Shown: positions 3,421-28,804 of the stretch, in pieces
Position numbering within the stretch: the first letter of the stretch is position 1
Layout of the letters: each line of letters opens with the position of its first letter
NCBI GenBank assembly: GCA_046329195.1
Contig: JAXLVB010000001.1
Coordinates: 2,585,235-2,649,234, forward strand
Source of the DNA: Spirosomataceae bacterium
GTDB taxonomy: Bacteria; Bacteroidota; Bacteroidia; Cytophagales; Spirosomataceae
DNA: 64,000 nt
Direction of reading: 5' to 3'
Program-made: the position numbers and the translations under genes
Notes under the pieces: generated by a model
What the model was told of the DNA's origin: nothing
The model's database searches: none
What the model saw: only the letters and a program-made list of their open reading frames with translations

Positions 3421-4400
3421 AATCATTTCGCTGGGGAATTATTGGCTTGGGGCGTATTGCCCGAAAATTTGCTGAAGGGCTACAGTTTGTACCCAATGCA
3501 CAATTGTATGCTGTAGCCTCTCGTGACCTCACCAAAGCACAAGCCTTTGCCGCTGATTTTCAGGCGACTCATGCGCTAGGTAGTTATGAAGCCATTACCC
3601 AGCTTGGCGACGTGGACGCCATTTATATTGCTACGCCCCATTCGGAACATCATGCTAATACCTTGATGTGTCTCAAGGCGGGCATCCCCGTACTGTGCGA
3701 AAAAGCGTTTGCTTTTAACTTGGCACAAGTACAAGAAATGGTCGGCGAGGCCCAAAGCCGTAAGGTTTTTTTGATGGAAGCCTTATGGACACGATTTTTG
3801 CCTGCCACTATCAAAACCCTCGAACTCATTGAAGCAGGCGAAATAGGCGAAATCAAACACATCTCAGCCGATTTTGGCTTCCTAGCTGATTACAACCCTC
3901 ACGGGCGTTTGTTCAATCCTTCTTTAGCCGGAGGTTCGTTGCTTGATATTGGTATTTATCCTTTGCTCATCAGCAAGTTTTTGTTAGGTAACCCTACCCA
4001 ACTCAGCGCCGTAGCTACCTTGACCGAAACAGGGGTTGATATGGCCTGCTCTATGGCCGCCCAGTTTGCTAACGGAGCCACAGCCACCTTGTTTTCGACA
4101 CTGGCTGCTCGCACCGACACTACAGCGGTTATTTATGGTACTAAAGGCAAAATAACGCTCCATACACGCTTTCACGAAGCCACAGCTTTATCCCTCCAGA
4201 TTACTGGACAAGAAGCACAATTGATTCCTTGCGAGCGTATGGGCGATGGCTACTGTTACGAGGCTCGCCATGTGCAAGAATGTTTGACTCAAGGGCTCAC
4301 CGAAAGCCCAGTAGTACCACTACAATTCAGTGTCGAACTCATGGCTATCATGGACGACATTCGCAAGCAGGTTGGGGTTGTGTACCCAGCTGATAACTAA
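3417..4400 (+). CDS. Gfo/Idh/MocA family NAD(P)-dependent oxidoreductase (cytoplasmic)
   Basis: Rossmann N-terminus WGIIGLGRIARKF and the EKA/EKP motif; its start overlaps the serC stop by 4 bp. Confidence 0.85.
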   Translation: MKSFRWGIIGLGRIARKFAEGLQFVPNAQLYAVASRDLTKAQAFAADFQATHALGSYEAITQLGDVDAIYIATPHSEHHANTLMCLKAGIPVLCEKAFAFNLAQVQEMVGEAQSRKVFLMEALWTRFLPATIKTLELIEAGEIGEIKHISADFGFLADYNPHGRLFNPSLAGGSLLDIGIYPLLISKFLLGNPTQLSAVATLTETGVDMACSMAAQFANGATATLFSTLAARTDTTAVIYGTKGKITLHTRFHEATALSLQITGQEAQLIPCERMGDGYCYEARHVQECLTQGLTESPVVPLQFSVELMAIMDDIRKQVGVVYPADN

Positions 4401-5814: not shown

Positions 5815-6384
5815 ATGGCAAAGTCAGGACAAGTGATTTACAATAAAGTTTCGACCGATAAGATTGTTTTTACACAAACACGAGCTGAAACACAAGGGCA
5901 ACTCTTACAGTTTGAAAATTATCATCAACCGAATGGCGTAGGGCCAGCTCCTCACAGGCATCCTTTACAAGAAGAAACATTCACAGTACACAAAGGGACT
6001 TTGTCTATCACGATTGAGGGTAATACCCATATCCTAACAGCTGGCCAACAGATTGTAGTGCCACCTGATAGTGTTCACTTTTGGCAGAACAGCGGCGATA
6101 CCGAGCTGTACATGACTACCGAATTCAGACCTGCCCTGCATTTTGAAGAAATCATCGAAACCATTGCAAGTCTATCGCAAATGGGTAAAATGGATGAGCG
6201 AGGAAACCCTAATCCAATGCAAATGTCGGCCACACTCAATGCCTACTACGGAGAGTTCTTTTTAGACACGATGCCTTTGGGTGTACAAAAGTTCCTATTT
6301 GGCGTTTTGGGGCGTTTACTTCGATGGGTTGGATTTAAAGACTATATAGCCTTTGACGGGTTGAACGAAAAATTCGTGCCTTGA
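5815..6384 (+). CDS. Cupin-domain protein
   Basis: 189 aa with a cupin-like His-containing core (PHRHP…H…VPPDSVHFW). This is a weak family-level call. Confidence 0.55.
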   Translation: MAKSGQVIYNKVSTDKIVFTQTRAETQGQLLQFENYHQPNGVGPAPHRHPLQEETFTVHKGTLSITIEGNTHILTAGQQIVVPPDSVHFWQNSGDTELYMTTEFRPALHFEEIIETIASLSQMGKMDERGNPNPMQMSATLNAYYGEFFLDTMPLGVQKFLFGVLGRLLRWVGFKDYIAFDGLNEKFVP

Positions 6385-6440: not shown

Positions 6441-6460
6441 ATTCCAAACGAACGTTTGGT
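6441..6460. promoter_or_regulatory. Perfect palindrome CCAAACGAACGTTTGG(TA), 36 bp upstream of the TetR start. Candidate TetR operator.
   Basis: Seen in the sequence. The identical 18-mer recurs at 18753–18772. Confidence 0.5.
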
Positions 6461-6493
6461 AATTTTGATACGCATACCAAGTGAGCCAGTCCT

Positions 6494-7066
6494 TTGCCAA
6501 CTCAAAAAGTAACACGAGACGAAATTATCCTGAAAGCCATCGCTTTGTTTCGGCGGCAGGGGTATCATCGTACCTCGATGGCCGATTTGGCACAAGAAGT
6601 TGGCTTATTGAAAGGCAGCTTTTATCATTATTTTGAGAGTAAAGAAGCATTGATGGAGGCGGTACTGGTTCATGTTCAAGACGCTTTAAATCGTCGGGTA
6701 TTTCCATTGGCCTATCAAGAAGAGTTGACACCCTTTGAGCGTTTAGACAAAATGTTGCGCCGATTGGGTAAGAATCTTTTTACTGGCGAAGGGGGGTGTA
6801 TTGTAGGTAATACCACGCTCGAAACCTCCTTACTTGTTCCCGAATTTCGGACTATTTTGCAGCAAATCTTCGAGAGTTGGATTCAAGCCCAAACGCATTT
6901 GTATGCCTACGTGTATTCCCCAGACCAAGCTAAGCAACTGGCCGAACAGACCGTCATGGAATTTGAGGGCGCCATTATGTTTAGTAAACTATACAACGAT
7001 ACCCGTTACATCACTACCTGTTTTGAACGAGCACTTGACCGCATGAATGCCAGTAAAACTGAATAA
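6494..7066 (+). CDS. TetR/AcrR family transcriptional regulator (apparent TTG start)
   Basis: N-terminal HTH: ILKAIALFRRQGYHRTSMADLAQEVGLLKGSFYHYF. The ORF begins with TTG and has no in-frame ATG nearby. Confidence 0.85.
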   Translation: MPTQKVTRDEIILKAIALFRRQGYHRTSMADLAQEVGLLKGSFYHYFESKEALMEAVLVHVQDALNRRVFPLAYQEELTPFERLDKMLRRLGKNLFTGEGGCIVGNTTLETSLLVPEFRTILQQIFESWIQAQTHLYAYVYSPDQAKQLAEQTVMEFEGAIMFSKLYNDTRYITTCFERALDRMNASKTE

Positions 7067-7091: not shown

Positions 7092-7133
7092 AAAAAAGGC
7101 AATAAACTGACTGTCAGTTTATTGCCTTTTTTT
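7092..7133. terminator. Bidirectional rho-independent terminator between the convergent TetR and anti-sigma genes (A6–GGCAATAAACTGAC/GTCAGTTTATTGCC–T7).
   Basis: 14-bp perfect inverted repeat flanked by an A-run and a T-run. Confidence 0.8.
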
Positions 7134-7172: not shown

Positions 7173-8891
7173 TTACTTCAATTGCCAAACTAAGCCAAAG
7201 TTGAGCCCTACATTGACAGGGCGGAGGGCCAGATTGCCGTAGTCGTCGGTAGCACTCCGAAGACCATAGTTTAGGGTAGGTTCTACACGTAAATTAATGC
7301 CTTGACCCAGCGGATAATTCACGCCATAAGCGAAGTTCAAGAACATATTAGAATTGCCATTTTGGTCTAATTGCATAACGCCCTCGGTGCCAACTGAAAG
7401 ATAATGCGCCATAGCACCAGACTGATTGAGTTTAAACAAGAGATCGGCTTTCACTCCTGCATAATGCCATTGTGTATCGCTTACTCGGGTGCGGGGATAA
7501 TAGATGGGGGTGAGTGCGAGGGTTTGGCTGTTGAGTAGTTGGGTAGCCATTGAGTCAGGAAGCACATTGCGTACTCGATAACTCACATAGTGATTCATCT
7601 GCAAATAACTTAGCCCCAAGCGAAGTTTAAAGCGCTGTGAAACAGGGATTTCTGTGCCTAACTGAAAACGCCATCCAGCTCGTTGGCTCGAAAAATTAGA
7701 AGTAGTACGGACATCTTCTACCAGTACGTCGTCGCTGTGCTGTGGAGCAATGCTATAATAGTTGTATAGTGGCATCATGCTCACATACATATCCAAAATC
7801 TTGTGCGGCTTTGCAATTTTGATCCAAGCTTGCTCTGTTTTTACGCTTTGAACGGCAGGCATCAAACTATTAAAAATGCTCGGACGAAAGCCTTTTGATT
7901 TGGCCATTGCCGTTTGCAGAGAAGCAAACGTAAAGGCCGCAGAACTAGACTCAACTGGGCTTAATGTGGTTGTTACTTCTGTCGGAATAGATGTCACAGG
8001 GCTAACAGACGCTATATTAGTAGCTGTACGGGTTACGGTAGTGGCTGCTTCTTTGTTAAATGACTGGCTCAACGATTGACGATCCAATGAACGTTTTCGA
8101 GTAGTTGAGCGCAGCGTTATTGTTTGCTCTTTGTCTGCTTTCAAGAGTTGACCTTTCAGCTCAGGTACCGATGCGATCTCGGTTGTGGGAGTGCTAGAGG
8201 CTTGTTTCTCCGCTGAATAAAACGCACTTGGCTTGGCCGATTTTGACGTAACCAATGATGGGTTTACTACGGCTTTAGCAGTTTTTAAAGCTGAAACCGT
8301 TGCTTTTTCTTCGGTTATCTCCGTAGTAGGAGGCTGAGGTTCAGCTAGAGAAGATGATTCAGAAGTAGAAGGTAAAGTTTGGACTATAGCGTTCGGTTGA
8401 GGTGATTCAATAGCAGATAATGGGCGGCTTGTTGCGGGAGTTTGGGTAGTACTTTCGAGAACCGTTGAGGCATCTGTGCCTGTTGGCTGACTTTGCTGGG
8501 TAGGCTGCGTTTGGGCCTGTGATGTTTGGTTGGTAGTAGAAAGAACACCTTGCTGCACAGTAAACCAAGCCACACTTGCCAATGATAAGAGGAGCAAGGC
8601 CAAAGCCGCTGCATAGCGATACGAGAACGCAAACACCCGTACAGGCTTGTTGACCTCGGCCAAAATGGCTTTGAGGGCGCCTACAGGCGGCTCTGCCTCA
8701 AAGTTGGCAAAGCGTTCTTGAAATTGATGTTCCATCGCATCCTGCGAAGGCATATCGTCAGGCTGATTGACCTTGTTCAAAATGCGAAGCAAGGCATCCG
8801 CTGGCGGATTAGATTCGTAATTGACGAACCGTTCCCTAAACAGGCGTTCGATTTCGTCGTTATTCTGGTTGCTCATAGCTAATAATGCCAA
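7173..8891 (-). CDS. Membrane-spanning anti-sigma-factor-like protein. It has an N-terminal cytoplasmic domain, one TM helix, a long S/T/P/Q-rich linker, and a C-terminal β-barrel-like (outer-membrane-type) domain.
   Basis: It overlaps and is co-oriented with the ECF sigma gene. There is a hydrophobic segment AAALALLLLSLASVAWFTV. The low-complexity region TQTPATSRPLSAIESPQP… is followed by alternating β-strand-like residues ending in WQLK. Confidence 0.55.
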   Translation of the reverse strand: MALLAMSNQNNDEIERLFRERFVNYESNPPADALLRILNKVNQPDDMPSQDAMEHQFQERFANFEAEPPVGALKAILAEVNKPVRVFAFSYRYAAALALLLLSLASVAWFTVQQGVLSTTNQTSQAQTQPTQQSQPTGTDASTVLESTTQTPATSRPLSAIESPQPNAIVQTLPSTSESSSLAEPQPPTTEITEEKATVSALKTAKAVVNPSLVTSKSAKPSAFYSAEKQASSTPTTEIASVPELKGQLLKADKEQTITLRSTTRKRSLDRQSLSQSFNKEAATTVTRTATNIASVSPVTSIPTEVTTTLSPVESSSAAFTFASLQTAMAKSKGFRPSIFNSLMPAVQSVKTEQAWIKIAKPHKILDMYVSMMPLYNYYSIAPQHSDDVLVEDVRTTSNFSSQRAGWRFQLGTEIPVSQRFKLRLGLSYLQMNHYVSYRVRNVLPDSMATQLLNSQTLALTPIYYPRTRVSDTQWHYAGVKADLLFKLNQSGAMAHYLSVGTEGVMQLDQNGNSNMFLNFAYGVNYPLGQGINLRVEPTLNYGLRSATDDYGNLALRPVNVGLNFGLVWQLK

Positions 8892-9417
8892 CCGTTTTGA
8901 GTTGCCGTCTTAATAGTTCTTTTGCCCTCGAAAGCTGTGACTTCGAGGTATTTTCTGAAATATTCAGCATCTCGCCGATTTCGACATGGTTGAATCCTTC
9001 AATGACGTAAAGGTTAAAAACCATCCGATACCCATCGGGAAGCCGATTGATAAACTTCATTAATTCTTCGGTAGAGAAGTGGCTGTACATCAGGCTGTGG
9101 TCATCATTGCTGATGGATACATCCTGATAATCAACATCTAAGAGGTGGTCTTTGAGGTGTTGGTGGTAGTAGTTGATCGCCGTGTTGACGGTCACTTGCT
9201 TCACCCAACTAGAGATTGATTCGATTTTTTGGAGATGACCAATCTTCCGAAAAATCTTGACGAACGCTTCTTGAAAAATATCTTCGGCTTCGTGTGTAGA
9301 ACGGGCATAGCGCCTACAAATACCCATCACACGGCCTTTGTACATATTGTAAAAAGCCGTTTGTGAACGAGGGTCATTTTGTTGACAACCCAGTATAATT
9401 TCTACTTCTGAAACCAT
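8860..9417 (-). CDS. ECF-type RNA polymerase sigma-70 factor
   Basis: 185 aa with sigma-70 region 2 (FYNMYKGRVMGICRRY…DIFQEAFVKIF) and a region 4 HTH (VIEGFNHVEIGEMLNISENTSKSQLSRAK). Confidence 0.9.
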   Translation of the reverse strand: MVSEVEIILGCQQNDPRSQTAFYNMYKGRVMGICRRYARSTHEAEDIFQEAFVKIFRKIGHLQKIESISSWVKQVTVNTAINYYHQHLKDHLLDVDYQDVSISNDDHSLMYSHFSTEELMKFINRLPDGYRMVFNLYVIEGFNHVEIGEMLNISENTSKSQLSRAKELLRRQLKTVGIISYEQPE

Positions 9418-9532: not shown

Positions 9533-10861
9533 TTATTTTACAATGGAAATCTCTACTTCTGCCGATGACTTCTGCCCCTTGATGTCGGTCAACTCATACT
9601 CAAACTTATCGGTACCAAGATAGCCTGCCTTCGGAAAATAAAAGATTCGTAAGTTCTCTGCCTTTACCAATCCCACATTGGCGGGGCTTTTGATCGTGAT
9701 TTCTTTGAGGTCGGTACATAACTTATCGTTGAGCCATACCACAATCTCCACGCTACCCGAAGGCGCTCCAAATAAGGCCGGATACGGTAAACTGGCCGAA
9801 ATCAACGCTTGGTCTTTGTTGGCCACTGGTTTACAGTTAGGGTCTGGTACGTCAACAATAGCCACAATCGCACCTGTTACGCAATTTTTCCCATCTTTAT
9901 CACACACTCGATATTCAAATGTTTCGGTACCCTTAAAAGTTGGCTTAGGTACATACAAAACTTTGTTGTCTTTGGTAATAGAAGCCCTGCCGTTTTGTGG
10001 GACTTTGCTGATACTAATAGGTATGCCTTTGTAGGCGTCACAGAGGTTGTCGTTTCGCAGTACATCTATGGTGATAGATGTATCTTTGAGTGCTTCGGTT
10101 CGTCGCCAGAGAAGGGCATCGGCAATGACGAGCGTTCGACAATCGGTCGGAGTCCCTTCCACAATCACCCGAACAGTAGCCAAGCGGCAGGTAGGTTTGT
10201 CACCAACCGTACAGACTCGATAGATCATCAAATCAGTACCTCTGAAACCAGTTTTTGGCGTATAAACCACCTTGTTTTTAATAATTTCAGCTTTGCCATT
10301 GGTGGGCTGTACTTCTATTCGGAGCGATGTAGAATCTAACGTAACATTACAAAAGCGGTCGTTGGCCAAGACTGGAATCGTTACGGCTACATTTTGTTGA
10401 GTTCGGGCAGCATCGTGCATCGCCCCTGCATTGCAAGGAATCCGACTAGCATCGGGGGTTACAATGAGCCGTACAGTGTCTCGGCGGCTGGTTGAGCCCG
10501 AACCCGTATTAGCATTGACCACATACGTAACGTCATCTTGTATATCTAGTGCCGTAGGGTCTGGAATAAACAAAAGAATCCCTTTGCTATCTATAAAAGT
10601 GAGGTCACCAAAAGTAGGTTGACTTTCTAACTTAAACGAACCCGCAGTGGTTAGGTTAGATTGCGCCAATACATCAATCGCCAACGGTTCATTGGGCAGA
10701 GTATAGTAATTATGGCTATCAAGTACTTTTGAAGACTCTCGAGCAGACGATACGGGTGGTACATCTTGCACAATAGTGTCGCAGGCCTGTATCAAAACAG
10801 ACATCAGTAAACCAGCTCCGTATGCGTATTTTTTAAAATTCATAAAAGTATACAACATCAA
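9533..10861 (-). CDS. Lipoprotein with about four repeated Ig/cadherin-like β-sandwich domains
   Basis: Lipoprotein-type signal ending …LIQAC. A recurring motif appears in each repeat: Y(V/T)PK(P/T)(T/G)F(K/R)GT(E/D)…(Y/E)(R/E)V(C/T)D. Confidence 0.55.
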   Translation of the reverse strand: MMLYTFMNFKKYAYGAGLLMSVLIQACDTIVQDVPPVSSARESSKVLDSHNYYTLPNEPLAIDVLAQSNLTTAGSFKLESQPTFGDLTFIDSKGILLFIPDPTALDIQDDVTYVVNANTGSGSTSRRDTVRLIVTPDASRIPCNAGAMHDAARTQQNVAVTIPVLANDRFCNVTLDSTSLRIEVQPTNGKAEIIKNKVVYTPKTGFRGTDLMIYRVCTVGDKPTCRLATVRVIVEGTPTDCRTLVIADALLWRRTEALKDTSITIDVLRNDNLCDAYKGIPISISKVPQNGRASITKDNKVLYVPKPTFKGTETFEYRVCDKDGKNCVTGAIVAIVDVPDPNCKPVANKDQALISASLPYPALFGAPSGSVEIVVWLNDKLCTDLKEITIKSPANVGLVKAENLRIFYFPKAGYLGTDKFEYELTDIKGQKSSAEVEISIVK

Positions 10862-13503: not shown

Positions 13504-14388
13504 CTACGCTTTCCGCTTGGTGTTTTCTCGGATGGATCGCTCGATTTCGTCCCACATTTCGTTAGGGACTTCTTCTAAGAAACTAAATTGACCTGCACCT
13601 TTGAGCCATTCGCCTCCATCAATGGTGATTTCTTGCCCGGTGATGTAGGCCGAGTAATCTGACATCAGGTAGGCGGCCAAATTGGCCAATTCTTGATGCT
13701 CGCCCACACGCCCCAGTGGGATGCGTTTCTCCATGTTGAACAAATGCTGCATAGGGGCTGGAAACAGACGGTCCCAAGCGCCCTTAGTAGGGAATGGTCC
13801 TGGAGCAATGGCGTTGAAACGGATGCTATGCCTGCCCCATTCTACAGCTAATGAGCGAGTTAGGTTAAACACTCCCGCTTTAGCAACAGCCGAGGGAACG
13901 GTATAGCCTGACCCCACGTAGGCATAGCTAGTGATGATACTGAGGACGGTTCCGGCTTGTTTTTGCTCAATCCAATGCTTGCCAACAGCCAAGGTGAAAT
14001 TAACAGTGCCTTGCAACACAATGCCAATGATACTCTCAAACGCCTTGTGCGAAAGCCGCTCCGTTGGGCTAATAAAATTCCCCGCAGCATTGTTAACCAG
14101 GCCATGTATAGACCCAAAACGGCTCAGCGTAGCCTCCAGTACTTGCATGACCTCTTCGTATTTGCGAACATCGCAGGGTACGGCAAGTACCTGACCGCCC
14201 GTTTCGGTCATAAGCTCTTGGGCAGTTGCCTCGATGACGTCAATTTTACGACTACAAATGACAACATTGGCGCCCAGTTGTAAGAAATAACGAGCCATAG
14301 ACTTCCCTAAGCCTGTGCCTCCTCCGGTCACGATGATGGTTTTACCCGAAAGCGCCCCGTCTTGGAGCATTCCTTGTGTATAAAGCAT
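13504..14388 (-). CDS. SDR-type 2,4-dienoyl-CoA reductase-like protein (DECR family)
   Basis: GKTIIVTGGGTGLGK, and NNAAGNF plus S…Y…K spacing typical of peroxisomal/mitochondrial dienoyl-CoA reductases. Confidence 0.8.
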   Translation of the reverse strand: MLYTQGMLQDGALSGKTIIVTGGGTGLGKSMARYFLQLGANVVICSRKIDVIEATAQELMTETGGQVLAVPCDVRKYEEVMQVLEATLSRFGSIHGLVNNAAGNFISPTERLSHKAFESIIGIVLQGTVNFTLAVGKHWIEQKQAGTVLSIITSYAYVGSGYTVPSAVAKAGVFNLTRSLAVEWGRHSIRFNAIAPGPFPTKGAWDRLFPAPMQHLFNMEKRIPLGRVGEHQELANLAAYLMSDYSAYITGQEITIDGGEWLKGAGQFSFLEEVPNEMWDEIERSIRENTKRKA

Positions 14389-14438
14389 GTGGCGTAAATG
14401 ATTTTGTGGTTTGTTTGAACAAACAGCAGGGTGATTAT

Positions 14439-15254
14439 TTAGTTTTCAAAGGTGGCTGGCTGCTTGGTCATGGATGCCTGAAAAGCGGCCATTAAGTCAG
14501 AAGAATAGAAAAAGGCGGCGTTCCAGTTGGCGATAAATTGCAGACTTTCAGCTACCGAGTGATCACGAGCATAGAGTAGATTTTGCTTCGTCCCTCGAAT
14601 CGAAAGTGGCGATTTGCTGGCAATCGTGGCGGCGATTTTCATAACTTCGTCGAGCATGGTGGCTTTGTCTGGAAATACCCGATTGACCAAGCCGCAGCGT
14701 TCGGCTTCAGTAGCACCGAGGTTGCGCCCCGTGTAAGCCAATTCTCGTACCAAGCCTTCCGAAATCAGCTTGGGCAAGCGTTGGAGTGTTCCTAAGTCGG
14801 CTACCATACCCATGTCAATTTCTTTGATGCAGAAATATGCATCGGCAGTACAATAGCGCATGTCAGTGGCAGTAACGATGTCCACGGCTCCACCAATACA
14901 ACCACCATGAATAGCCGATAGAATGGGTTTAGTGCATTGTTCGGCTGCATTGACAGTATTTTGGAGGTCGAGCAAAAACTTTCTGAATTTCTCCCGTTTG
15001 CGCCCCTCGCAAGGGTCTTGGGTTTTTTGTCCGGTGGACATGAGCATGGATAAATCAATCCCTGCCGAAAACAACTTGTCACCGGCTGCACTCAAGACCA
15101 CTACTCGTACTTCGGGGTTTTCGTGGCAGTGGAGTAGTGCATCACGGAGGTCTTCCCACGCTTGTTCATTGAGGGCATTCGCTTTTTCAGGGCGATTCAG
15201 CTCCAAATGCGCTATATGGTTATGGATGCTTAGGTTAAAATGTTGAAAAGCCAT
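14439..15254 (-). CDS. Enoyl-CoA hydratase/isomerase family protein (Δ3,5-Δ2,4-dienoyl-CoA isomerase, ECH1-like)
   Basis: Crotonase-fold motifs: LNRPEKANAL, VVVLSAAGDKLFSAGIDL, GGCIGGAVD. Confidence 0.8.
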   Translation of the reverse strand: MAFQHFNLSIHNHIAHLELNRPEKANALNEQAWEDLRDALLHCHENPEVRVVVLSAAGDKLFSAGIDLSMLMSTGQKTQDPCEGRKREKFRKFLLDLQNTVNAAEQCTKPILSAIHGGCIGGAVDIVTATDMRYCTADAYFCIKEIDMGMVADLGTLQRLPKLISEGLVRELAYTGRNLGATEAERCGLVNRVFPDKATMLDEVMKIAATIASKSPLSIRGTKQNLLYARDHSVAESLQFIANWNAAFFYSSDLMAAFQASMTKQPATFEN

Positions 15255-15324
15255 GGGTATGTTATTTTCAAATTATCTTTTGTTTGGTGTCCTCCAATCT
15301 AGTTCAAGTGCCATCTCCTATCCC

Positions 15325-16296
15325 CTACGGTCGAACTAAAATCTTACCCGTGCGGCCTTCTTGTTGGGCATGAATCACCGCTTCTTTGATTTGAGCCAAT
15401 GAGTACGTAGCCTCAACAGGCAGTTTGATTTCGCCACTTGCCAGTAGTTGTACCACATTGGTAAGGACTTCTTTGCGGGCTTCGGGCGAGGCTGTTTTCA
15501 TCCACGTAGTCAGCCAAAAACCCTTTAGCATGATTTCTTTAAAAATCATTACGCCAGCGTTAACTGGAATGTCCTCAACACTTAATGAGCCATAAATCAG
15601 CATTTTACCGCCACTGCTCAAGCAAGGCAACACCTGTGCGGCTGTTTTGCCAGCCACTGCCTCCAAAATACATTTTACTCCAGCACCTCCTGTGATGTCC
15701 TTCACACGGCGAGTCACGCTTTCTTGCGAAGTATCAATGATTTCGTCGGCTCCTAAGGCTTTGAGCTCTTCAATCATATCAGGGCGCCGGACAGTACCGA
15801 TGGTTTTAATGCCTTTCATTTTGCAGACCTGAATCACCATTTTTCCAAAGGCCGAACCCACTGCCGTGAGCATTAGCCATTCGCCTGGTGCTACGCCAGA
15901 GTCGAGTACCATAGCATAAGCCGTAAATGGATTGACAAACAACTGGGCGGCCACGTCGTCGGGCATGGAGGGTGGAATCGGTATGGCTGTTTTGGCTTGG
16001 GTGATGGCGTATTCGCCCCAAGTACCAATGCTTGTAAAACTAACCCGCTGTCCGATAGGCATCGTCACACCTTCGCCACAGGCATCCACAAGACCCACGC
16101 CTTCAAACCCAGCACCCGACGGGAAAACGGGTCGAATCCCATACAGATTTTGTACAAACATCACGTCGGAAGGATTAATGGGGGAGGCGATTACCTTCAC
16201 TCGAATCTCGCCTGCGGCAGGTTCTGGGGTTGGTATTTCAATAACTTCCAAAATGTCTTCTGGCTTGCCAGCGTGGTCAAATCGTGCAGCTTTCAT
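15325..16296 (-). CDS. Medium-chain dehydrogenase/reductase (quinone oxidoreductase / trans-2-enoyl-CoA reductase-like)
   Basis: MDR N-terminus (GEIRVKVIASPINPSDV) and NAD(P)-binding motif AVGSAFG. Confidence 0.8.
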   Translation of the reverse strand: MKAARFDHAGKPEDILEVIEIPTPEPAAGEIRVKVIASPINPSDVMFVQNLYGIRPVFPSGAGFEGVGLVDACGEGVTMPIGQRVSFTSIGTWGEYAITQAKTAIPIPPSMPDDVAAQLFVNPFTAYAMVLDSGVAPGEWLMLTAVGSAFGKMVIQVCKMKGIKTIGTVRRPDMIEELKALGADEIIDTSQESVTRRVKDITGGAGVKCILEAVAGKTAAQVLPCLSSGGKMLIYGSLSVEDIPVNAGVMIFKEIMLKGFWLTTWMKTASPEARKEVLTNVVQLLASGEIKLPVEATYSLAQIKEAVIHAQQEGRTGKILVRP

Positions 16297-16672: not shown

Positions 16673-17236
16673 TTATTTTTTTAGTGCATTCCAAATTTGG
16701 CGCTCATGGTGCCGAAAATGCGCATCCAGAAAGTCTAACATTTGAATCAGATTCAGCTTACCCGCTACCGGATGGCGAAACAAATCCCGCTCGGCGGCGC
16801 CTTCGGGCAACTCGTCGAGGAGAGCTTTGAGTTGCTGCCGAGTCTCTGTCCATTTTTCGGCTGTATGCGCCAATGTATCTGCTTCGGGCACGGAGGCTGT
16901 GGCAGGTGCTGCCTTTCGTTTCAAAAACGATGTAGCCAACCACACCTTCATCAGCCACGTTTTGAAGGCCGCTGAAAACCCTGTTTTTCGAGCCGAAGCC
17001 AGACCTAACACCTTCTTCCGTAGGTAATTAAGTGTATTAGCTTCTGACAAAATCAAGTGGTGCATCACCTGAATCGCCGACCATTTGTTAGGTTCGGGGC
17101 AGGTATTTAACGCCTGTTCGGGGTAGTCGGCAAGGCTCTGTACTAACGTGTTTCGCCGTTTTTCGGTACTATCAAAGAGTTGTTGTAGCTTAGGATCCAT
17201 GGGTTGTGTAGTGTTTAACCGAACGAAGATAGACAA
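16673..17236 (-). CDS. DinB/YfiT-like (DinB_2) four-helix-bundle metalloenzyme family protein
   Basis: 187 aa with conserved H…H spacing (VMHHLILSEANTL … HFRHHERQ). Confidence 0.65.
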   Translation of the reverse strand: MSIFVRLNTTQPMDPKLQQLFDSTEKRRNTLVQSLADYPEQALNTCPEPNKWSAIQVMHHLILSEANTLNYLRKKVLGLASARKTGFSAAFKTWLMKVWLATSFLKRKAAPATASVPEADTLAHTAEKWTETRQQLKALLDELPEGAAERDLFRHPVAGKLNLIQMLDFLDAHFRHHERQIWNALKK

Positions 17237-17269: not shown

Positions 17270-17812
17270 TTACTCTTGACTCACCGCTGCTAGGCGTTGT
17301 TGCATAGACTTGTGGTGATGACTGGTGTGGAAGGCCGTAAAGTAGAGCATTTCTCGCACACTCATTTTGCCCATCACAGGGTGTGGTATGATGTACGTAT
17401 CTAGCTCTTGTTCAGTCCATTGATTATTCATAATGTTTAATAGCTGGGCATTACTTTGCTGAAACTGCGCAACCACAACAGCCTTGTCGGGATTGGTATC
17501 AATGACAGGAATAAAATTACCCGTTGCTTTTAGCCCCTGCTCCAGCACAGCTTCGTATTTTTTTACTACTTCTGCGTACGCTCGAAGCGGCCAGTTGACC
17601 GTTCCCCATTTTTCAACTAAGTATTCTTTGGGTTTGGTCATCAAATAAGCCACCGGCTGCACCGATTGGATCAGGTGTTGGACGTTTTCGGCTGCCGACC
17701 AGACATCTTGGTCAGGGCGTGCAAAAAAATGCTCGGAGCTGGCTTCTTGTGCAGTAGCCACCACCTGTGATACTGCACTAGTCAGTAAATCAGTGAGTTG
17801 AGTTTTGTCCAT
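17270..17812 (-). CDS. DinB-family protein (start placed at internal Met MDKTQL)
   Basis: Helical bundle with H-rich C-terminus (FHTSHHHKS). The upstream 34 codons overlap the preceding promoter region. Confidence 0.65.
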   Translation of the reverse strand: MDKTQLTDLLTSAVSQVVATAQEASSEHFFARPDQDVWSAAENVQHLIQSVQPVAYLMTKPKEYLVEKWGTVNWPLRAYAEVVKKYEAVLEQGLKATGNFIPVIDTNPDKAVVVAQFQQSNAQLLNIMNNQWTEQELDTYIIPHPVMGKMSVREMLYFTAFHTSHHHKSMQQRLAAVSQE

Positions 17813-17850
17813 GAGGTAAGTTTTTAGTTTTAAGGCATTCAGTAGGTACG

Positions 17851-18750
17851 TTAAGCACGAACGGCAAGATGGTGTTGAAGGAACAGGTCGAGTTCGGATA
17901 GGGCTTTGGTCCATAAGGTCGCTTTGAACGACTTACGGAAAAACCCAAAATGGTCAATGGACTTAACGCCCAACGACTGAGGGTTCATTTCCTCAATGGA
18001 TACACCTTTTTCACTCTTGACGTGTTTCCAAAACACCTCAACCGCTTGCCGATTGGCAATTTTATCGTCGGTAGCCCATAGTACTTTGATAGGGAATTTG
18101 ATGGCATGATACCACCCTTTGGCAGGCCCATCGTTGTAAAATTTGGGGTCGAAAAAATAATCAGGCACACTGCACCACGCTCGCCATTGATTGGTGATAC
18201 GAGCAGGGAGGTCTTCCATCAACCCAAATTGTTTGACAGCCGTGTAGCCATACAGCCAATGGGTAAGAGGCCGAACAATCTCAAAAAAGAAATGGGTACG
18301 CAGCCGATACCCCAAGGGCATAAATCCCCAATACCCCGACGACGACGCCACCGCCAGTAAGCCAATAGCCTGATTGACAGTAGGCATCAGGGCGAATTTC
18401 TGCCCCCCTACGCTATGCCCCATCAGGATAATGGGGAGCGAGGGAAATTGTTGTTGAAGAAAAGCCATAACGCCAGTCATATCTTTTTGAGCCCAATCTA
18501 AGTATTCAAAATCGCAATGCTTCAAGCCCGAAGCCGGTTTTGAGGCGCCGATACCTCGGTAGTCAAACAGGCAAACGGCGTAGCCCTCCGTAGCCAAAAA
18601 TTGGGCAAAGGCACTGTAGTATTCTTTCGGAACGGCAGTGGCTCCGTTGAGTTGAACAAGGGCTTTGGGTTGGTCGGGTACCAACAAGAGGCCGCCCAAG
18701 GGGTAGCCGTCGGTGGCAGGAATAGTAATTGGATTCGTGTTGTAATTCAT
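17851..18750 (-). CDS. α/β-hydrolase fold protein (start placed at MNYNTNPITIPATDGYPLGG)
   Basis: GHSVGG nucleophile elbow and α/β-hydrolase topology. The long ORF's N-terminal extension is hydrophobic junk. Confidence 0.8.
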   Translation of the reverse strand: MNYNTNPITIPATDGYPLGGLLLVPDQPKALVQLNGATAVPKEYYSAFAQFLATEGYAVCLFDYRGIGASKPASGLKHCDFEYLDWAQKDMTGVMAFLQQQFPSLPIILMGHSVGGQKFALMPTVNQAIGLLAVASSSGYWGFMPLGYRLRTHFFFEIVRPLTHWLYGYTAVKQFGLMEDLPARITNQWRAWCSVPDYFFDPKFYNDGPAKGWYHAIKFPIKVLWATDDKIANRQAVEVFWKHVKSEKGVSIEEMNPQSLGVKSIDHFGFFRKSFKATLWTKALSELDLFLQHHLAVRA

Positions 18751-18752
18751 TT

Positions 18753-18772
18753 TACCAAACGTTCGTTTGGTA
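18753..18772. promoter_or_regulatory. Second copy of palindrome TACCAAACGAACGTTTGGTA, 2 bp upstream of the hydrolase ATG on the minus strand. Putative TetR operator.
   Basis: The identical 18-mer CCAAACGAACGTTTGGTA is at 6443–6460. Confidence 0.5.
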
Positions 18773-19319
18773 AAGAACGCTAAAAAATAAAATCCAATGC
18801 AAGTTTTTGGTAAAAAAATGATGCTTGCATACGATTTTGAAGGAGTATTACACTTACCCTCCTTGATTTTGTCATAGAAATCAACGGAAGAAAAGAAAGT
18901 AAGGTGCATACCTTATGCCACCGATTTACCTGATAGGGGCACGAAAGCACCAAAACCACCTAAATTTATGCCCATGTAACCACCCAAGGGTTTGATGGAG
19001 CAAACTTTGCCAACTAAAAAGCCCCTTAGCTAAGTTGGATATATGAAAATATTTGTGTATTCTTGGAAAGCTATTCGTAATATAGAAGGTAGGCAAAGCG
19101 AAAATAAATCGCACTAGATGAACGAGTAGCTATAGCGGAAATGAACGCAAGTTTTTAAAATTTAAACGCAAGGGTTGCGTTTATTTGGATGTTATTGGCA
19201 ACCGTAGGACGACCACGCAACAAGCCACAGAGTGACGAAACAGTGCAGGCGACTAAAAGCAATAACAAAACGACCTAAATAATATTCTATCTTTGTATAT
19301 GCAAAACCATAGGTAAATT

Positions 19320-20372
19320 ATGACAATAGAAGAACTTGCAGAGAGCATATATGAAGTTATTAAGGACTACAGAAATCACGACAATATTTTTATTTCTCAA
19401 CAATATATACTTGAATGGGCGGAGCAATTTGAAGATGATAGACTGCTTGTTTTGACAGAGCTGAATAAAATAATTAAAGAAACATACGTTTCAAGGGAGA
19501 AGGCAAAAGAATTTGTATTCGAGCATCTTCTTGAGTATTTGAAATTATACAAATACTCAAACATTTCAACATTTTTAATTGATACAGAATTTTTAGACAT
19601 CCAACAACCACATAAAAGTCAACCCTCAATTTTATACATATTGGAAGAAGTTTTAAATGAAAAATTTCAAGATTCGTATATAAGATACAAGAATTATCCC
19701 AAATTAAACTATGTTTATTTTGATGATATTCTTGCTTCGGGCAGCACTATTGGGAGAGATTCAATAAATTTCTTGAATAGGGTAGATTCATCAGGAAAAA
19801 GGTTTGATCAAAAGGTGCAAGACAATGAGATAAAATTTTCAATCAGCGTATTTTGTTTACACACTTGGGGATTTGAATTTCAGAAATTCAGAATTCAGAA
19901 ACAATTTAGCGACAAGGTGATGAAAAAAATAAATTGGTTTTGGAATTACGAAATTCAAAATCACGCAAGGTTCAACAACCAAAAACTTAATATTGCAAAA
20001 CCTGTAAAGGGAAATAATATAAAGATAAATGGTTATTTGGAAAATTTACCCGCAACTAAACATGAAGATTACGCATACAGGAAGGCAAGTACCCCAACAA
20101 CAGAACAGTTTTTCACATCTGCGGGCAACAGAATAAAATTTGAAAATATTTTGACTGAAAAAGGAATAGATATAATCAGTATGATACAAGGCGAAGTAAA
20201 ACCAAATATAAGACCATTGGGATTGATAAACCCACAATATAAAATATTTGGGTTAGGAACTCATTTTTTTACTTGGCGTAATATTCCCAACAATTCACCT
20301 TTGGTATATTGGTGGGAAGTACACGGGCATAATTGGAAACCATTATTTTCTGTCGCAAATAGAGGGAATTAA
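19320..20372 (+). CDS. Hypothetical protein with a type-I phosphoribosyltransferase-like PRPP-binding motif (NYVYFDDILASGSTIG), inside an AT-rich island. Candidate toxin/effector.
   Basis: The motif [VIL]x[VIF]DD[IL][IL][AS][ST]G[ST]T matches the PRTase P-loop, as in PyrR VILIDDVLATARM in this same window. The gene is strongly AT-rich with atypical codon usage, and a TAtcTTTG −7-like box lies 25 bp upstream. Confidence 0.5.
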   Translation: MTIEELAESIYEVIKDYRNHDNIFISQQYILEWAEQFEDDRLLVLTELNKIIKETYVSREKAKEFVFEHLLEYLKLYKYSNISTFLIDTEFLDIQQPHKSQPSILYILEEVLNEKFQDSYIRYKNYPKLNYVYFDDILASGSTIGRDSINFLNRVDSSGKRFDQKVQDNEIKFSISVFCLHTWGFEFQKFRIQKQFSDKVMKKINWFWNYEIQNHARFNNQKLNIAKPVKGNNIKINGYLENLPATKHEDYAYRKASTPTTEQFFTSAGNRIKFENILTEKGIDIISMIQGEVKPNIRPLGLINPQYKIFGLGTHFFTWRNIPNNSPLVYWWEVHGHNWKPLFSVANRGN

Positions 20373-20393
20373 AAAAAAGTTTAATTTAGCATC

Positions 20394-21011
20394 ATGAAGC
20401 CGAGCGTAAGGGAATACCAAATCAAAAATGTCATTACGTTTGCAAAGACAGACGGACATTTTGGAGCCTTGTCAAATATGGCACCGGGATTTAATTTGTT
20501 CATTAACGAAGTTAATATTCAAAGTTCCGAAATATTATATCAAGCATGTAGATTTCCATTGTTTCCTAATATACAAGAAGAAATAATTAGGACACAAAAT
20601 CCAATGAACGCTAAAAAAATTAGCCGACAATATATTCAATATAGTCGTCAAGATTGGGACACTGTAAAGTTTAAAATTATGAAGTGGTGTTTAGAAGTTA
20701 AGCTAATTCAAAATTTTGACAAATTCTCAAATATACTTCTTTCCACTGACGACAAAACAATAGTTGAGTATTCTAAAAAAGATGCTGTTTGGGGTGCAAT
20801 ATTAAAAGACGACAAGAGCACTCTTATTGGAAAAAACGCTTTGGGGCGACTTTTAATGGAATTAAGAGAAAAAGTCAAATCAGGCGATATAAATAAATCA
20901 ACAGTTATTCTTCCACCAAATATTCCTGCATTCTTATTGTTCGGAAATATGATTGAAGACGTAAGGAGTGACGAGTACTTCATACTTGACTTAGACGAAA
21001 TCTACGCATAA
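20394..21011 (+). CDS. NADAR (YbiA/DUF1768-like) domain protein
   Basis: GHFGALSNMAPGFNLFINEVNIQSSEILYQACRF matches the NADAR core (LSNF…F…S.EHyfQA.KF). It lies 21 bp downstream of the PRTase-like gene. Confidence 0.7.
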   Translation: MKPSVREYQIKNVITFAKTDGHFGALSNMAPGFNLFINEVNIQSSEILYQACRFPLFPNIQEEIIRTQNPMNAKKISRQYIQYSRQDWDTVKFKIMKWCLEVKLIQNFDKFSNILLSTDDKTIVEYSKKDAVWGAILKDDKSTLIGKNALGRLLMELREKVKSGDINKSTVILPPNIPAFLLFGNMIEDVRSDEYFILDLDEIYA

Positions 21012-21037
21012 GAACGGCAGTCCATAACAGGCGTAAC

Positions 21038-22771
21038 TGTTGCACAACTAGCGAAAAGTGTCATGGCAGACCTTCATAACTAATTTCTAACAGGGGGGAG
21101 CTTTGGTATGGCCAACCTGTGTTGAAAATTTAGAACCCTTCTTGTCGAAGTTATAGAAGCCGTTTTGCTCCATTTTTGCCCATACAAACAGACTTCTTCC
21201 CTAATCGACAGCGCTTGCGCTACGGGCTGAACCTTTTTACGCTCAAAGCGCAAATACTTCTGCAAGTTGTAGCTCAGCGCTGCCATCAGTACGTGCTTGT
21301 TGGCCTGTGACATCCCTCGGGTGTTTACCCGCCTCCTATTCATAAAATTAATCAAGGTGCCCAGCACTGGTTCTACCGTCCGTGAACGTATCTTGCTTAT
21401 CCGATTGGCATACGCTCGATGCTTGCTCAGTTTCTCGTGCATTCGGTCGTAGTAGGGCTTGTCGATGCTCTCTTCCAACTTCTTGTACTTGGTGACTCTC
21501 CCACAGCACACCTCTCGCAGGGAGCATGATTTACAGATGCTTTCGCTTCTCCGGTACTGACGCTTGGCGTAGCCTTTGCTATCGGTCTTGATGCCTTTAA
21601 ATGTTAGTATCGCTTGCCGCCCCCCTGCTGTATGCATTCGTATTGGTCGAGTTCGGAATTATAAATAAAGCCTTCTCGTTCTGGCTTGTACTGTCCAAAA
21701 TTGGGTATATACGCATCTATACCATGCTCTTCACAATATTTCAAGGCTTTCCCTGAGCTATATCCTGCATCTGCTGCTAGTTGGTCTATTGATATAGACA
21801 CACTACCAAGATTTTCAATCGTTTGGTCAAGTATTTCTGCCAGATTCTCGCTGTCTTTGCTGCCTGCTGTACCTGCACAAGCTCCCGTGATGACATGGTG
21901 GGCATCATCCACTGCAAGTTGTCCACTATAATTTAGTTGACGGGCTTTACCTGGTTTTACTGAAATTTTGGCCTCCGGGTCGGTAGGTGAATAATGCGTG
22001 TGGTTGGATAAAAACTTGGGACGTATTAAATGACCATTTTCATCCACTCTTGATGAATCCGTATGGCCGGGCATGTCTTTATATTCCTCCTTTTTCCAGT
22101 CATGGTGTTGTTCTACCAACTTTTTGCGGGTACTCGTAACTTTATACTCAGAACCTTCTTCAAGCTCATTTATATAAGCACTTGCATCTTCTATAACTTC
22201 CTTTTCTACCAAACTATCCATACTCGCATTGGCTTTGATAAAGGCACTATCTACACACTGTCGTTTGCCTCTCACCATTCCTTTGGCTACGCATTTCTGC
22301 AATATCTGCTGAAATAACGCTAAAAACACCTGCTCACCATAAAGTTGACGTGTACGGCTAATCGTACTATGCCATGGCAATACTTCATCAATATCATATT
22401 TTAAGAACAAGCGTATGGCAAGGCTATCAGAACAGAAGGCTATCAGCTTTCGGTCTGATCGGATCGCCGAAGCGATTGATGTTGTTGAGATAACCTACAA
22501 GTAGTATCTTAAAGAAGACGACAGGGTCGATTGACTCTTGACCTTCTCTTCCATAATATTGGCTCGTAGCTCCATAGAGATACTCCAAGTCAAGAACCGT
22601 GTTGAGCTTGCGATAGTAATTGTTAGTACTGACCAAGTCTTCCAGATTGACTTGATAAAATTCTTTCGGACTGTAGTTTTTTCTGCCTTGCATACTGCTA
22701 AAATACAAAATAGACCTCAGATTTTCAATCTTTTTAGTTACTTTTGATGTACTTGAAGTAGTTGTGCAACA
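21038..22771 (-). mobile_element. IS element (IS1182/IS5-like) of 1734 bp bounded by perfect 13-bp terminal inverted repeats TGTTGCACAACTA / TAGTTGTGCAACA. No obvious target-site duplication.
   Basis: The IRs at 21038–21050 and 22759–22771 are exact reverse complements of each other, and they enclose the transposase ORFs. Confidence 0.7.
21080..22708 (-). pseudogene. IS1182/IS5-family DDE transposase split into three frames (22427–22708, 21604–22410, 21080–21637)
   Basis: The N-terminal InsH-like segment reads YYGREGQESIDPVVFFKILLVGYL. The middle DDE segment follows, then a C-terminal segment (GTLINFMNRRRVNTRGMSQANKHVLMAALSYNLQKYLRF). The three pieces are separated by two frame changes. Confidence 0.75.
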
Positions 22772-26861: not shown

Positions 26862-28079
26862 CTATTTTGTAAACAACCGTTCTAACATAAACAAAGGCAC
26901 AAGCGGCTTGTGTCCAGTAAGTACCTCGGTTACGAGTTCGCCCAAAGCAGGGCCGTGCTTGTAGCCATGTCCAGAGCCTCCACCCAACAACCAGCAATTA
27001 TCGGCTTCGGGGTGTTGGTCAAGGATAAAATTACCGTCGGGGGAGTTTTCGTAGGGGCAAACACGGTTTTCGGCCAAAGGAGCATTCCTAAGAGCTGGAA
27101 ATCGGTGAGTAATAAACTGTCGAGCATGAGCCAGCACGTCAGGGTTTAGGATACGTTCGCCGTTGGTTGGGTCAAATACTTCGCCACGGCGGTCCACCCC
27201 TATCTTAAAACCTCGGTTGGCGTTGCCCGGGATGCCATAATAAAAATCTTGACCGTCCACATCTACCCAAACGGGCATTTGGTCAAACAACTGAGTGTGG
27301 GTGTAGGGTACTCCAAAGTAATAGGCTTCTTGTCGAGAACAGGTGATGACAGAACCCAATACTTCAGGAAATAACTTCCCCAACCATGACCCACACGCAA
27401 ACACATACGCATCGGCCTGCACCCTAGAGCCGTCAGAAAGCAGCAGGTGCTCCATCTGACCCCCTACGCATGGCCCCGGTTGCACGTGTGCTTGTAGGTA
27501 GGTACCCCCTTCGTTTACAAAAGCTTCTTGTACGGCTATGGCTCCTTCCCGAGCTTTGAGGTAGCCTCCTTCAGGGTCGAATAGCGCATGGTGCAAGTCA
27601 TCAGTATGAATGTGTGGATACTTTTGGTGTAGTTCGTGGGTAGTAAGATACTGATAGTTCAGGCCATACTTCTGCATAAACGGCACGCTTTCGTCAATCA
27701 TCGGCACGTGTTCTTCATAACAAAACCAAAGTACACCCGTTGGATGGAAAAGCTTTTTGCCAAAGCGTTCCTGATTTTCTTTCCAAAGCTCCAAAGCCCT
27801 CACATTGAGGTCAAAATACGTTTCGTTTGCTCCATACGTAGAGCGAATCACTCGGGTTTCGTCGCCTGAGCTACTTCGAGAGTTGCCAGCTCCCCACGCA
27901 TCAATGAGTGTCACTTTAATACCTTTGCGCAGCAAATATAGGGCCGTCCAACCACCAAAAGCACCTGCGCCTATCACAGCGACATGAGCCTTGATGCCCA
28001 AATTGGGGGCAAACCGTAATGTAGTTGGCGTGACGGACTCGGTAGGAGCGAAGGTATTTTGAGTGGAAGTAATGGGCAT
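26862..28079 (-). CDS. FAD-dependent oxidoreductase (DAO family; sarcosine/N-methyltryptophan oxidase-like)
   Basis: VAVIGAGAFGGWTALYL dinucleotide-binding motif and DAO-like length. Confidence 0.8.
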   Translation of the reverse strand: MPITSTQNTFAPTESVTPTTLRFAPNLGIKAHVAVIGAGAFGGWTALYLLRKGIKVTLIDAWGAGNSRSSSGDETRVIRSTYGANETYFDLNVRALELWKENQERFGKKLFHPTGVLWFCYEEHVPMIDESVPFMQKYGLNYQYLTTHELHQKYPHIHTDDLHHALFDPEGGYLKAREGAIAVQEAFVNEGGTYLQAHVQPGPCVGGQMEHLLLSDGSRVQADAYVFACGSWLGKLFPEVLGSVITCSRQEAYYFGVPYTHTQLFDQMPVWVDVDGQDFYYGIPGNANRGFKIGVDRRGEVFDPTNGERILNPDVLAHARQFITHRFPALRNAPLAENRVCPYENSPDGNFILDQHPEADNCWLLGGGSGHGYKHGPALGELVTEVLTGHKPLVPLFMLERLFTK

Positions 28080-28240
28080 AAAACGATGAATTTAATGGAC
28101 TGTCAGGGCAAAAATATAAATCGTCCGTCAAACTTAGAAAAACCCTACCAAAATAGCGTTTATTGGTCATGCTGATAACCTCAAATTTTTACCTTTGCAA
28201 GGTTTTATTTTTCAACACTACCTATTCTTTTTGAAGACTT

Positions 28241-28804
28241 ATGGCTGTAGCGTTTACCACCGTTACGACTGACGATGAAATCTTGCAGATACTGGAATTA
28301 CAACGTCAAAACTCTCCTCAAAATATTACAAACGAAACGCTTGTTAGTCAGGGCTTTGTGACGGTTCAGCATACGCCTGATTTGTTGCGTAGCATGAACC
28401 AAGCCTTGCCCCAAATCATTGCCAAAGACCAAGATCGAGTAGTAGGCTATGCGCTGGTGATGCCGCAGTCGTTTCAAGACTTGATTCCTGTCCTGAAACC
28501 TATGTTTGTGATGCTGGATTCGTTGTCGTGGAAATCAAAGGCAATTCCGACGTATAGTTACTATGTGATGGGACAGATTTGCGTGGCCGAAAGCCATCGA
28601 GGGCAAGGCATTTTCGACGGACTATACGCCAAACACAAAGAAGTTTTGTCGTCTTCATTTGAGTTGTGTATCACCGAGATTGCCGTACGAAACACTCGCT
28701 CCATGCGAGCACACGAGCGAGTGGGCTTTGAGTTACTACACAACTTCCAAGATGCTACCGATGACTGGAACCTTGTGGTGTGGGATTGGCGGGAAAGAGT
28801 GTAG
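28241..28804 (+). CDS. GNAT family acetyltransferase
   Basis: 187 aa with a GNAT-like core (HRGQGIFDGLY). Confidence 0.65.
   Translation: MAVAFTTVTTDDEILQILELQRQNSPQNITNETLVSQGFVTVQHTPDLLRSMNQALPQIIAKDQDRVVGYALVMPQSFQDLIPVLKPMFVMLDSLSWKSKAIPTYSYYVMGQICVAESHRGQGIFDGLYAKHKEVLSSSFELCITEIAVRNTRSMRAHERVGFELLHNFQDATDDWNLVVWDWRERV

Follow-up and report, generated by a model that had tools for sequence, protein, structure and literature searches.

Upstream of a gene for a TetR-family regulator in the Spirosomataceae DNA analysed here (a stretch of 64,000 nucleotides, hereafter called the window) stands a short perfect inverted repeat. The locus raises the question of whether this repeat is the operator of the regulator itself and, if so, which other genes the regulator would control through it. 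The initial annotation had read the repeat as an autoregulatory operator. We arrive at a similar but wider reading: T(T/A)CCAAACG-nn-CGTTTGGTA, an inverted repeat of 20 bp, is probably the operator to which the TetR-family repressor from the gene at 6494-7066 binds, present both at the repressor's own promoter and at an operon for a hydrolase and DinB proteins. On comparative sequence evidence, we put the probability of this reading at roughly 0.85.

The inverted repeat and the TetR gene that follows it

The following features surround the repeat.

5815-6384: cupin gene (Cupin_2)
6442-6461, no strand: predicted operator site 1, the 20-mer TTCCAAACGAACGTTTGGTA, with its core at 6444-6459, matching the family consensus at 17 of 18 positions
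6460-6467, plus strand: predicted sigma-A -7 box, TAATTTTG, a perfect match to TAnnTTTG, its TA being the last two bases of the operator
6494-7066, plus strand: TetR-family regulator gene, 190 aa, TTG start, with a TetR_N helix-turn-helix (HTH) and an LmrA/YxaF-like TetR_C_13_2 domain
7092-7132, plus strand: terminator-like hairpin after the TetR gene, 19 pairs followed by a T run

The element had been described as a perfect 7-2-7 palindrome downstream of the cupin gene, and this is what we find: the core CCAAACGAACGTTTGG occupies 6444-6459, with arms of 7 nt around an AA spacer, and starts 59 nt past the cupin stop codon (6384). The distance from the core to the TTG start at 6494 is 34 nt, and the 36 bp given previously was a minor error. 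The extent of the element needs adjustment as well, in that the 16-nt core is real but the functional unit would comprise 20 bp. This 20-bp box (6442-6461) lies 32 nt before the TetR start codon and has the features looked for in an autoregulatory operator, i.e., a dyad-symmetric site of about 15 to 30 bp within the regulator's own promoter region, the promoter being predicted in silico.

By itself, a palindrome of this kind carries little weight. The window contains five perfect 7-2-7 palindromes, compared with 4.26 +/- 2.0 in shuffled sequences, which is chance level, and one sequence accounts for two of the five. What makes the element significant is thus its exact repetition, together with the fact that the second copy is an 11-2-11 palindrome. 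The 18-mer CCAAACGAACGTTTGGTA, reported earlier to be repeated once, indeed has one further exact copy in the window (18753-18770, minus strand), and when up to three mismatches are allowed the count in the 64 kb remains at two, against 0.10 expected and with none of 100 shuffles reaching two. Palindromes with arms of at least 9 nt are expected 0.18 times in the window. The identity between the two window copies ends at 19-20 nt, beyond which the flanks are unrelated.

In our opinion, it is hardly credible that the palindrome arose by chance or that it belongs to a dispersed repeat family of the REP or MITE type. The chance-level frequency of 7-2-7 palindromes (5 versus 4.3 expected) would agree with such an origin, as would the REP-like hairpins that often precede the TetR gene in related genomes. 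Yet an identical 19-20-mer occurs twice where 0.1 is expected, the two copies, which are the only ones in 64 kb, have unrelated flanks, and conservation is position specific across genera, as detailed below. Likewise, the scatter over many unrelated positions that would mark a repeat family is not seen: besides the two window copies, only 4 background hits of at least 14/18 are present in 509 kb of DNA flanking the TetR gene at the related loci.

The location of the core 59 nt past the cupin stop codon, where a terminator scan lists 6444-6459 followed by TAATTTTGAT, could also point to an intrinsic terminator of the cupin gene at 5815-6384. We consider this very improbable. The stem has just 6 pairs, 3 of which are G-C, the 56-nt region folds at -6.8 kcal/mol (z = -1.4, with 18 of 200 shuffles as good), and the scan finds 2 such sites against 1.7 expected. 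Moreover, the second site, identical in sequence, is situated at a 5' end and lacks a T tract, the orthologous boxes are located between divergent genes, where a terminator is unnecessary, and in other genomes the TetR gene does not have a cupin orthologue beside it. The cupin gene was also considered as a member of the regulon and rejected, given that there is no cupin orthologue near the TetR gene in the 80 loci that we compared and no box upstream of the cupin gene.

The regulator combines an HTH with a TetR-type C-terminal domain (Pfam TetR_N PF00440, 8.6e-17; TetR_C_13_2 PF21993, 3.2e-12) and is full length relative to its orthologues. The N termini of these orthologues all read MPxQK, which fixes the TTG at 6494 as the start codon; an in-frame TGA is found upstream of it at 6482-6484. 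The closest relative, a Spirosomataceae MAG (L001) with a TetR that is 72% identical, uses TTG too, and GTG is used in L022 and L024. In a public gene call for this protein (P0001; 137 aa, 100% identical), Met29 is taken as the first residue, so that 6494-6577 and with it most of the HTH are lost, a misplacement that is presumably due to the true start being a TTG. At the other end of the gene, the hairpin at 7092-7132 indicates that the TetR gene is probably the last of its transcript in the window. In L001, the genes downstream of TetR are orthologues of those at 7173-8891, 8860-9417, and 9533-10861 in the window, and the hydrolase is absent near its TetR gene.

Conservation of the box and promoter geometry

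Comparison of 80 loci with relatives of the window TetR (43-72% identity, one genome per species) revealed a recurrent 20-bp box, TACCAAACGnnCGTTTGGTA, upstream of the TetR orthologues. At 52 of the 80 loci, the 260 nt preceding the TetR gene contain a site that agrees with it at 14 or more of 18 positions. About 0.16 such loci would be expected, the background being 4 matches of at least 14/18 in 508,796 positions of the same loci. A shortened variant, CTACCAA(T/C)CGTTTGGTA, is present in 11 more loci, mostly from Emticicia. The site thus co-occurs with orthologous regulators in other genomes (52 of 80 plus the 11 with the variant), and the box-bearing genomes, which include Runella, Emticicia, Larkinella, Fibrisoma, Saprospiraceae, and others, amount to 52 to 63 of the 80. 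The information content of the box is high and symmetric, with A6, C8, and T15 invariant and T1, G13, T16, and G18 nearly so, and its right half is slightly better conserved than its left. The orthologous box upstream of the TetR gene in L001 reads TTCCAAACGAGCGTTTGGTA.

The gene on the far side of the box encodes a metallophosphoesterase in Runella and Emticicia, URO-D in Larkinella and Fibrisoma, GNAT in L001, and OmdA in L048. Since this gene varies between groups, the box goes with the TetR gene and not with the neighbour. The presence of the box before orthologous TetR genes in 52 to 63 of 80 genomes strongly favours the earlier suggestion that it serves as an autoregulatory TetR operator. 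Autoregulation via this box does not, however, seem to be universal in the orthologue group, because the roughly 15 Arcicella-type loci (L002-L005, L007-L014, L016, and L056) carry no box within +/-4 kb and have the same HTH. We also observed that the Arcicella/Pseudarcicella-type orthologues, which are 51-59% identical, have long perfect hairpins or REP-like inverted repeats just upstream (at about 3800-4000).

The sigma-A promoters of Bacteroidetes have a -33 TTTG element at a defined spacing from the -7 box. The -7 box itself, TAnnTTTG in Bacteroidetes/Flavobacterium, occupies -12 to -5 (PMC9723704). Perfect matches to TAnnTTTG number 76 on both strands of the 64-kb window, which corresponds to a chance of about 3% of meeting one on the correct strand in a 50-nt interval. 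The match at 6460-6467 has a counterpart in L001, where TAAATTTG is found at the same offset from the box. On this basis, transcription of the TetR gene is predicted to start near 6472, with a 5' UTR of about 22 nt. Site 1 would then lie at approximately -30 to -11 of the TetR promoter, its last TA being common with the -7 box TAATTTTG, and binding of a TetR dimer (or a pair of dimers) to site 1 would block sigma-A RNA polymerase, resulting in negative autoregulation. The overlap of the box with predicted sigma-A promoter elements also favours the autoregulatory interpretation proposed at the outset.

In other genomes, the arrangement appears to be different. At 34 loci, the TTTG in the right half of the box is followed by a perfect TAnnTTTG at a distance of exactly 19-20 nt. 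This is the spacing of a -33/-7 promoter, so that the operator would double as the -33 element at these loci. Several Larkinella loci (L060, L061, L066-L068, L072, and L079, at about 3952-4003) show TTTG, a 20-nt spacer, and a perfect TAnnTTTG, which places the predicted start on the ATG; accordingly, their TetR mRNA is predicted to be leaderless.

In principle, the box might mainly be a promoter element, with its TTTG sequences representing Bacteroidetes -33 boxes placed back to back for divergent genes, and not a repressor site at all. The 34 loci with TTTG 19-20 nt before a perfect TAnnTTTG, many of which have a divergent neighbour, would fit this idea. We nevertheless regard it as unlikely in the extreme, as conservation extends over 9 nt per half-site with dyad symmetry, well beyond TTTG, and the box in the window and in L001 abuts the -7 box instead of being positioned at -33. 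In addition, the second site and its orthologues abut a start codon and leave no space for a downstream -7 box, and the same 20-mer is found in organisms of 65-75% GC, which have other promoter types.

The second site and the hydrolase-DinB operon

The second copy of the repeat lies directly in front of a group of genes on the minus strand.

18751-18774, no strand: predicted operator site 2, a perfect 11-2-11 palindrome, TTTACCAAACG-TT-CGTTTGGTAAA
17851-18750, minus strand: alpha/beta-hydrolase gene, 299 aa, Hydrolase_4, GHSVGG nucleophile motif; first gene of the predicted target operon
17270-17914 (ORF as listed), minus strand: first DinB_2 gene (DinB_2, 9.9e-15)
16673-17236, minus strand: second DinB_2 gene, same direction, 34-70 nt downstream of the first DinB gene

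Within site 2, the consensus 20-mer spans 18753-18772 and matches at 18 of 18 positions, and the ATG of the hydrolase gene at 18750 follows this box after 2 nt. An alignment with 5 orthologues identifies the Met at 18750 as the genuine start, since they begin there as well and the 53-aa extension of the ORF upstream of it has no counterpart in them. In the first DinB_2 gene, translation probably begins at an internal Met (17812), which lies 38 nt past the hydrolase stop codon. The second DinB_2 gene shows weak similarity to YfiT-type bacillithiol transferases (YfiT model, 1.8e-06, below the family cut-off); judged by its spacing, it would belong to the same operon.

A comparable gene order recurs among the relatives. 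The TetR gene is followed by an alpha/beta-hydrolase orthologue at 34 of 80 loci (28-57% identity by BLASTP, 45-57% in the closest groups), and a DinB_2 orthologue comes after the TetR or the hydrolase gene at 42 of 80. A second box is found 2-11 nt before the hydrolase ATG in 12 loci and about 70-160 nt before DinB in 8 loci. Site 2 holds the same position as the second box in relatives and thus marks the orthologous target operon. Regulator and target are 11.7 kb apart and on opposite strands in the window, while in most relatives the operon directly adjoins the TetR gene. Site 2 is therefore best regarded, by this comparison, as the predicted operator of the regulator's conserved hydrolase-DinB target operon, which is here unlinked from the regulator. 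At one Emticicia locus, a tandem heptamer, (GAGAATT)n, takes up the whole distance from the TetR stop codon to the operator of the hydrolase gene (L047:4567-4636).

The promoter that site 2 would act on is less readily recognised. The minus strand lacks a perfect TAnnTTTG near 18775-19000, the region upstream of site 2. One candidate is a weak box, TATTTTTT, at 18782-18789, which would place the start near 18777 and the operator at about +5 to +24. Alternatively, the operator's own AACGTTTG might serve as a -7-like element, giving rise to a near-leaderless mRNA. Under either candidate promoter, the box at site 2 is predicted to overlap the initiation region.

Taken together, site 2 would place the hydrolase gene and the two DinB_2 genes under the same repressor that acts at site 1, by sitting on the transcription start region or within a very short leader. 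A ligand or a modification at the LmrA/YxaF/NemR-like C-terminal domain would release the repressor and switch both units on. The operator function in this scheme finds support in the sequences, their conservation, the co-occurrence with the TetR orthologue group, and the gene contexts; the promoter positions, the binding, and the sign of regulation are predicted.

Other genes and sites in the window were considered as well. The hydrolase-DinB-DinB genes are followed, after a gap of 377 nt, by a quinone-oxidoreductase-like gene on the same (minus) strand (15325-16296), and then, also on the minus strand, by an enoyl-CoA hydratase gene (14439-15254) and an SDR/enoyl-reductase gene (13504-14388). 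These three genes (13504-16296) were rejected as conserved targets, as no conserved association with the TetR gene is seen at the 80 loci. A third potential site, TACCAAAATAGCGTTTATTG at 28146-28165, matches at 13/18 and precedes a GNAT gene (28241-28804) by 75 nt; in L001, the orthologue of this GNAT gene is divergent from the TetR gene. We judged this site to be due to chance: the upstream regions do not align with those of L001, and with 61 matches of 13/18 per 509 kb, such a score is background. A 14/18 match at 27265 was likewise dismissed, being inside a DAO gene.

The DNA just upstream of site 2 has a different character. A low-GC island extends over 19000-22410, with 33% G+C at 19000-21100 compared with 45.5% for the whole window. 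Its genes encode a PRTase-CE protein (19320-20372), a NADAR protein (20394-21011; PADLOC candidate PDC-M42C, 4e-14), and, after the NADAR gene, a DDE transposase split into two ORFs on the minus strand (21080-22410). The island looks like a horizontally acquired conflict/defence module that was inserted just upstream of site 2.

Relation to known TetR regulators and wider distribution of the box

In its general design, the predicted system resembles generic TetR repressors with an autoregulatory palindrome, such as TetR/tetO, QacR, and AcrR, with which it shares the TetR_N HTH, a dyad site of about 20 bp over the regulator's own promoter, and a second operator at the target operon. It differs from the TetR/tetO type in that the target in the window is 11.7 kb away on the other strand and the promoter is of the Bacteroidetes -33/-7 kind.

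The operator sequence itself is reminiscent of that of PsrA, a long-chain fatty-acid-responsive TetR regulator of Pseudomonas that is autoregulatory, as predicted here. A 2009 study by Kazakov reportedly dealt with FadP/PsrA motifs. The PsrA consensus is C/GAAAC-N2-4-GTTTG/C, and TTCAAACN4GTTTGAA is found at rpoS (PMC13104628). The window core CAAAC-GAAC-GTTTG at 6445-6458 fits this motif, and the occurrence of the exact 20-mer before beta-oxidation genes in other phyla resembles the PsrA regulon. However, the window box is longer than the PsrA box, with TACC/GGTA flanks and an invariant CG, and the window targets are the TetR gene and the hydrolase-DinB-DinB genes, not fad/etf or other beta-oxidation genes as in the PsrA regulon. 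The window TetR gave no hit to the NCBIfam PsrA model NF053516 at E<=1e-5, and no chain named PsrA was among the 60 listed of the 103 matched PDB sequences. With no hit to the PsrA model, and with AcuR as the best NCBIfam match, itself below the cut-off, we rejected the idea that the window TetR is a PsrA orthologue. Variants of the 14-16-mer core were not found in the literature searched by sequence, in which 8-9-mers match unrelated primers only.

AcuR is the best full-length NCBIfam match of the regulator (2.6e-24, residues 5-178), with a score of 85.7 bits against an equivalog cut-off of 247. AcuR and NemR have a C-terminal domain of the TetR_C_13 type, as is the case here. Nevertheless, identity with AcuR can be dismissed, given that the score is far below the cut-off (85.7 versus 247 bits) and the operator is different: AcuR of Rhodobacter sphaeroides, a regulator that responds to acrylate, recognises TAATAGAC-n6-GTCTATTA (PMC3017554), to which the window box TACCAAACG-nn-CGTTTGGTA is unrelated. 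The targets differ too, AcuR and NemR acting on acuI/dddL or nemA/gloA, whereas those in the window are the hydrolase and DinB genes. The acuR mRNA is leaderless (PMC3017554), as is predicted for some of the orthologues here.

Several homologues are labelled "repressor of nem operon" or "NemR-like" by JGI. The window TetR is 26% identical to E. coli NemR over 125 aa, and this low identity, together with the different operator, led us to reject NemR identity. The comparison does draw attention to Cys102 (motif EGGC-IVGN), which is invariant in 27 of 27 aligned orthologues. It aligns with Cys106 of NemR, a reported sensor of reactive chlorine species (PMC7464077), and by this alignment is a candidate sensor cysteine; the partner Lys175 could not be aligned. 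Possibly, then, Cys102 and the DinB targets, one of which is weakly like the YfiT bacillithiol transferase, suggest a thiol-based or electrophile-responsive switch, a thought that we offer only as a lead.

The closest solved structure by sequence, among the 60 of 103 matches listed, is that of YxaF from Bacillus subtilis (PDB 1sgm; 4e-13, residues 6-170). The Pfam family of the C-terminal domain, PF21993, is named after LmrA and YxaF, the ligands of which are flavonoids, and the relationship of these proteins to the window TetR is distant.

A motif-anchored scan recovered the exact 20-mer in 65 metagenome contigs (for instance, at L083:2585-2604, L097:11372-11391, and L106:493-512). Of these contigs, 17 also encode a TetR with the HTH signature GLLKGS[FL]YHY, in about 15 cases right at the box. 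Six low-GC contigs (L082, L087, L105, L108, L109, and L121) repeat the Bacteroidota arrangement with full-length orthologues. In many contigs of 65-75% GC, the box directly precedes the gene for a thiolase (413-416 aa; L083, L092, L098, L102, L118, L130, L131, L144, and others) or a glyoxalase-type protein, and in further low-GC contigs (31-48% GC) it directly precedes the gene for an acyl-CoA dehydrogenase (L097 and L111) or EtfB (L106, L114, L120, and L127). The TetR genes at the boxes include true orthologues with the GGC motif (L119 and L126). The other box-adjoining TetRs resemble the window TetR only in the HTH, where identity is 40-57% across some 50-80 aa, and their C-terminal domain is TetR_C_24 (L084, L089, L099, and others). 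From this spread, the box looks like the target of a widespread recognition helix, GLLKGS[F/L]YHY, that occurs with more than one kind of sensor domain.

This distribution bears on what we consider the most serious, if still rather unlikely, alternative, namely, that the box is a genuine TetR-type operator but that its main binder is a paralogous TetR encoded elsewhere with the same recognition helix, such as a TetR_C_24 regulator of fatty-acid catabolism. The adjacent TetR gene would in that case be controlled through the box, either without encoding the binder or in addition to encoding one. Such a paralogue, sharing or competing for the sites, could be encoded elsewhere in the genome, and several observations are compatible with one. 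Many metagenome contigs, among them low-GC ones with the appearance of Bacteroidota, have the exact 20-mer in front of genes for a thiolase, an acyl-CoA dehydrogenase, or EtfB; TetRs with another C-terminal domain have the same HTH; and Arcicella-type orthologues possess the HTH without a nearby box. On the other hand, in about 63 genomes the box is found together with this very orthologue group and the hydrolase/DinB genes beside it, whatever the surroundings, and full-length orthologues adjoin the box in the same six low-GC contigs. We therefore continue to favour the TetR encoded at 6494-7066 as the repressor that would bind both sites in the window.

Conceivably, the 20-bp box and the helix G-L-L-K-G-S-[F/L]-Y-H-Y form a DNA-binding module that is conserved across phyla and has been joined to different sensor domains. 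In soil bacteria of 65-75% GC, the module would be combined with TetR_C_24 and govern beta-oxidation genes (thiolase, acyl-CoA dehydrogenase, and ETF). In Cytophagales/Spirosomataceae, it would be combined with TetR_C_13_2, bearing a Cys at the position of NemR Cys106, and govern a detoxification operon of hydrolase and DinB (thiol-transferase-like) genes, perhaps by a thiol switch and not by a classical ligand. We put this forward tentatively, as a speculation with rather less than even odds.

In conclusion, the predicted regulon, consisting of the TetR gene itself and the hydrolase-DinB genes, is a well-supported yet ordinary case of a TetR operator as far as the comparative evidence from about 65 related genomes goes. 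The switch is very probably of the textbook bacterial kind, and the general understanding of TetR regulators is unchanged by it. What the analysis does provide is a predicted set of regulator, operator, and targets for Spirosomataceae/Cytophagales, a group in which, to our knowledge, almost no transcription factors have been characterised. It suggests that a repressor site may be laid over the Bacteroidetes -33/-7 promoter in two different ways, and it would bring DinB-family proteins and a hitherto uncharacterised serine hydrolase together in a single inducible response. The system might furnish an inducible expression part for Bacteroidota, and it may be an example of one DNA-binding specificity that has been reused with different sensor domains.
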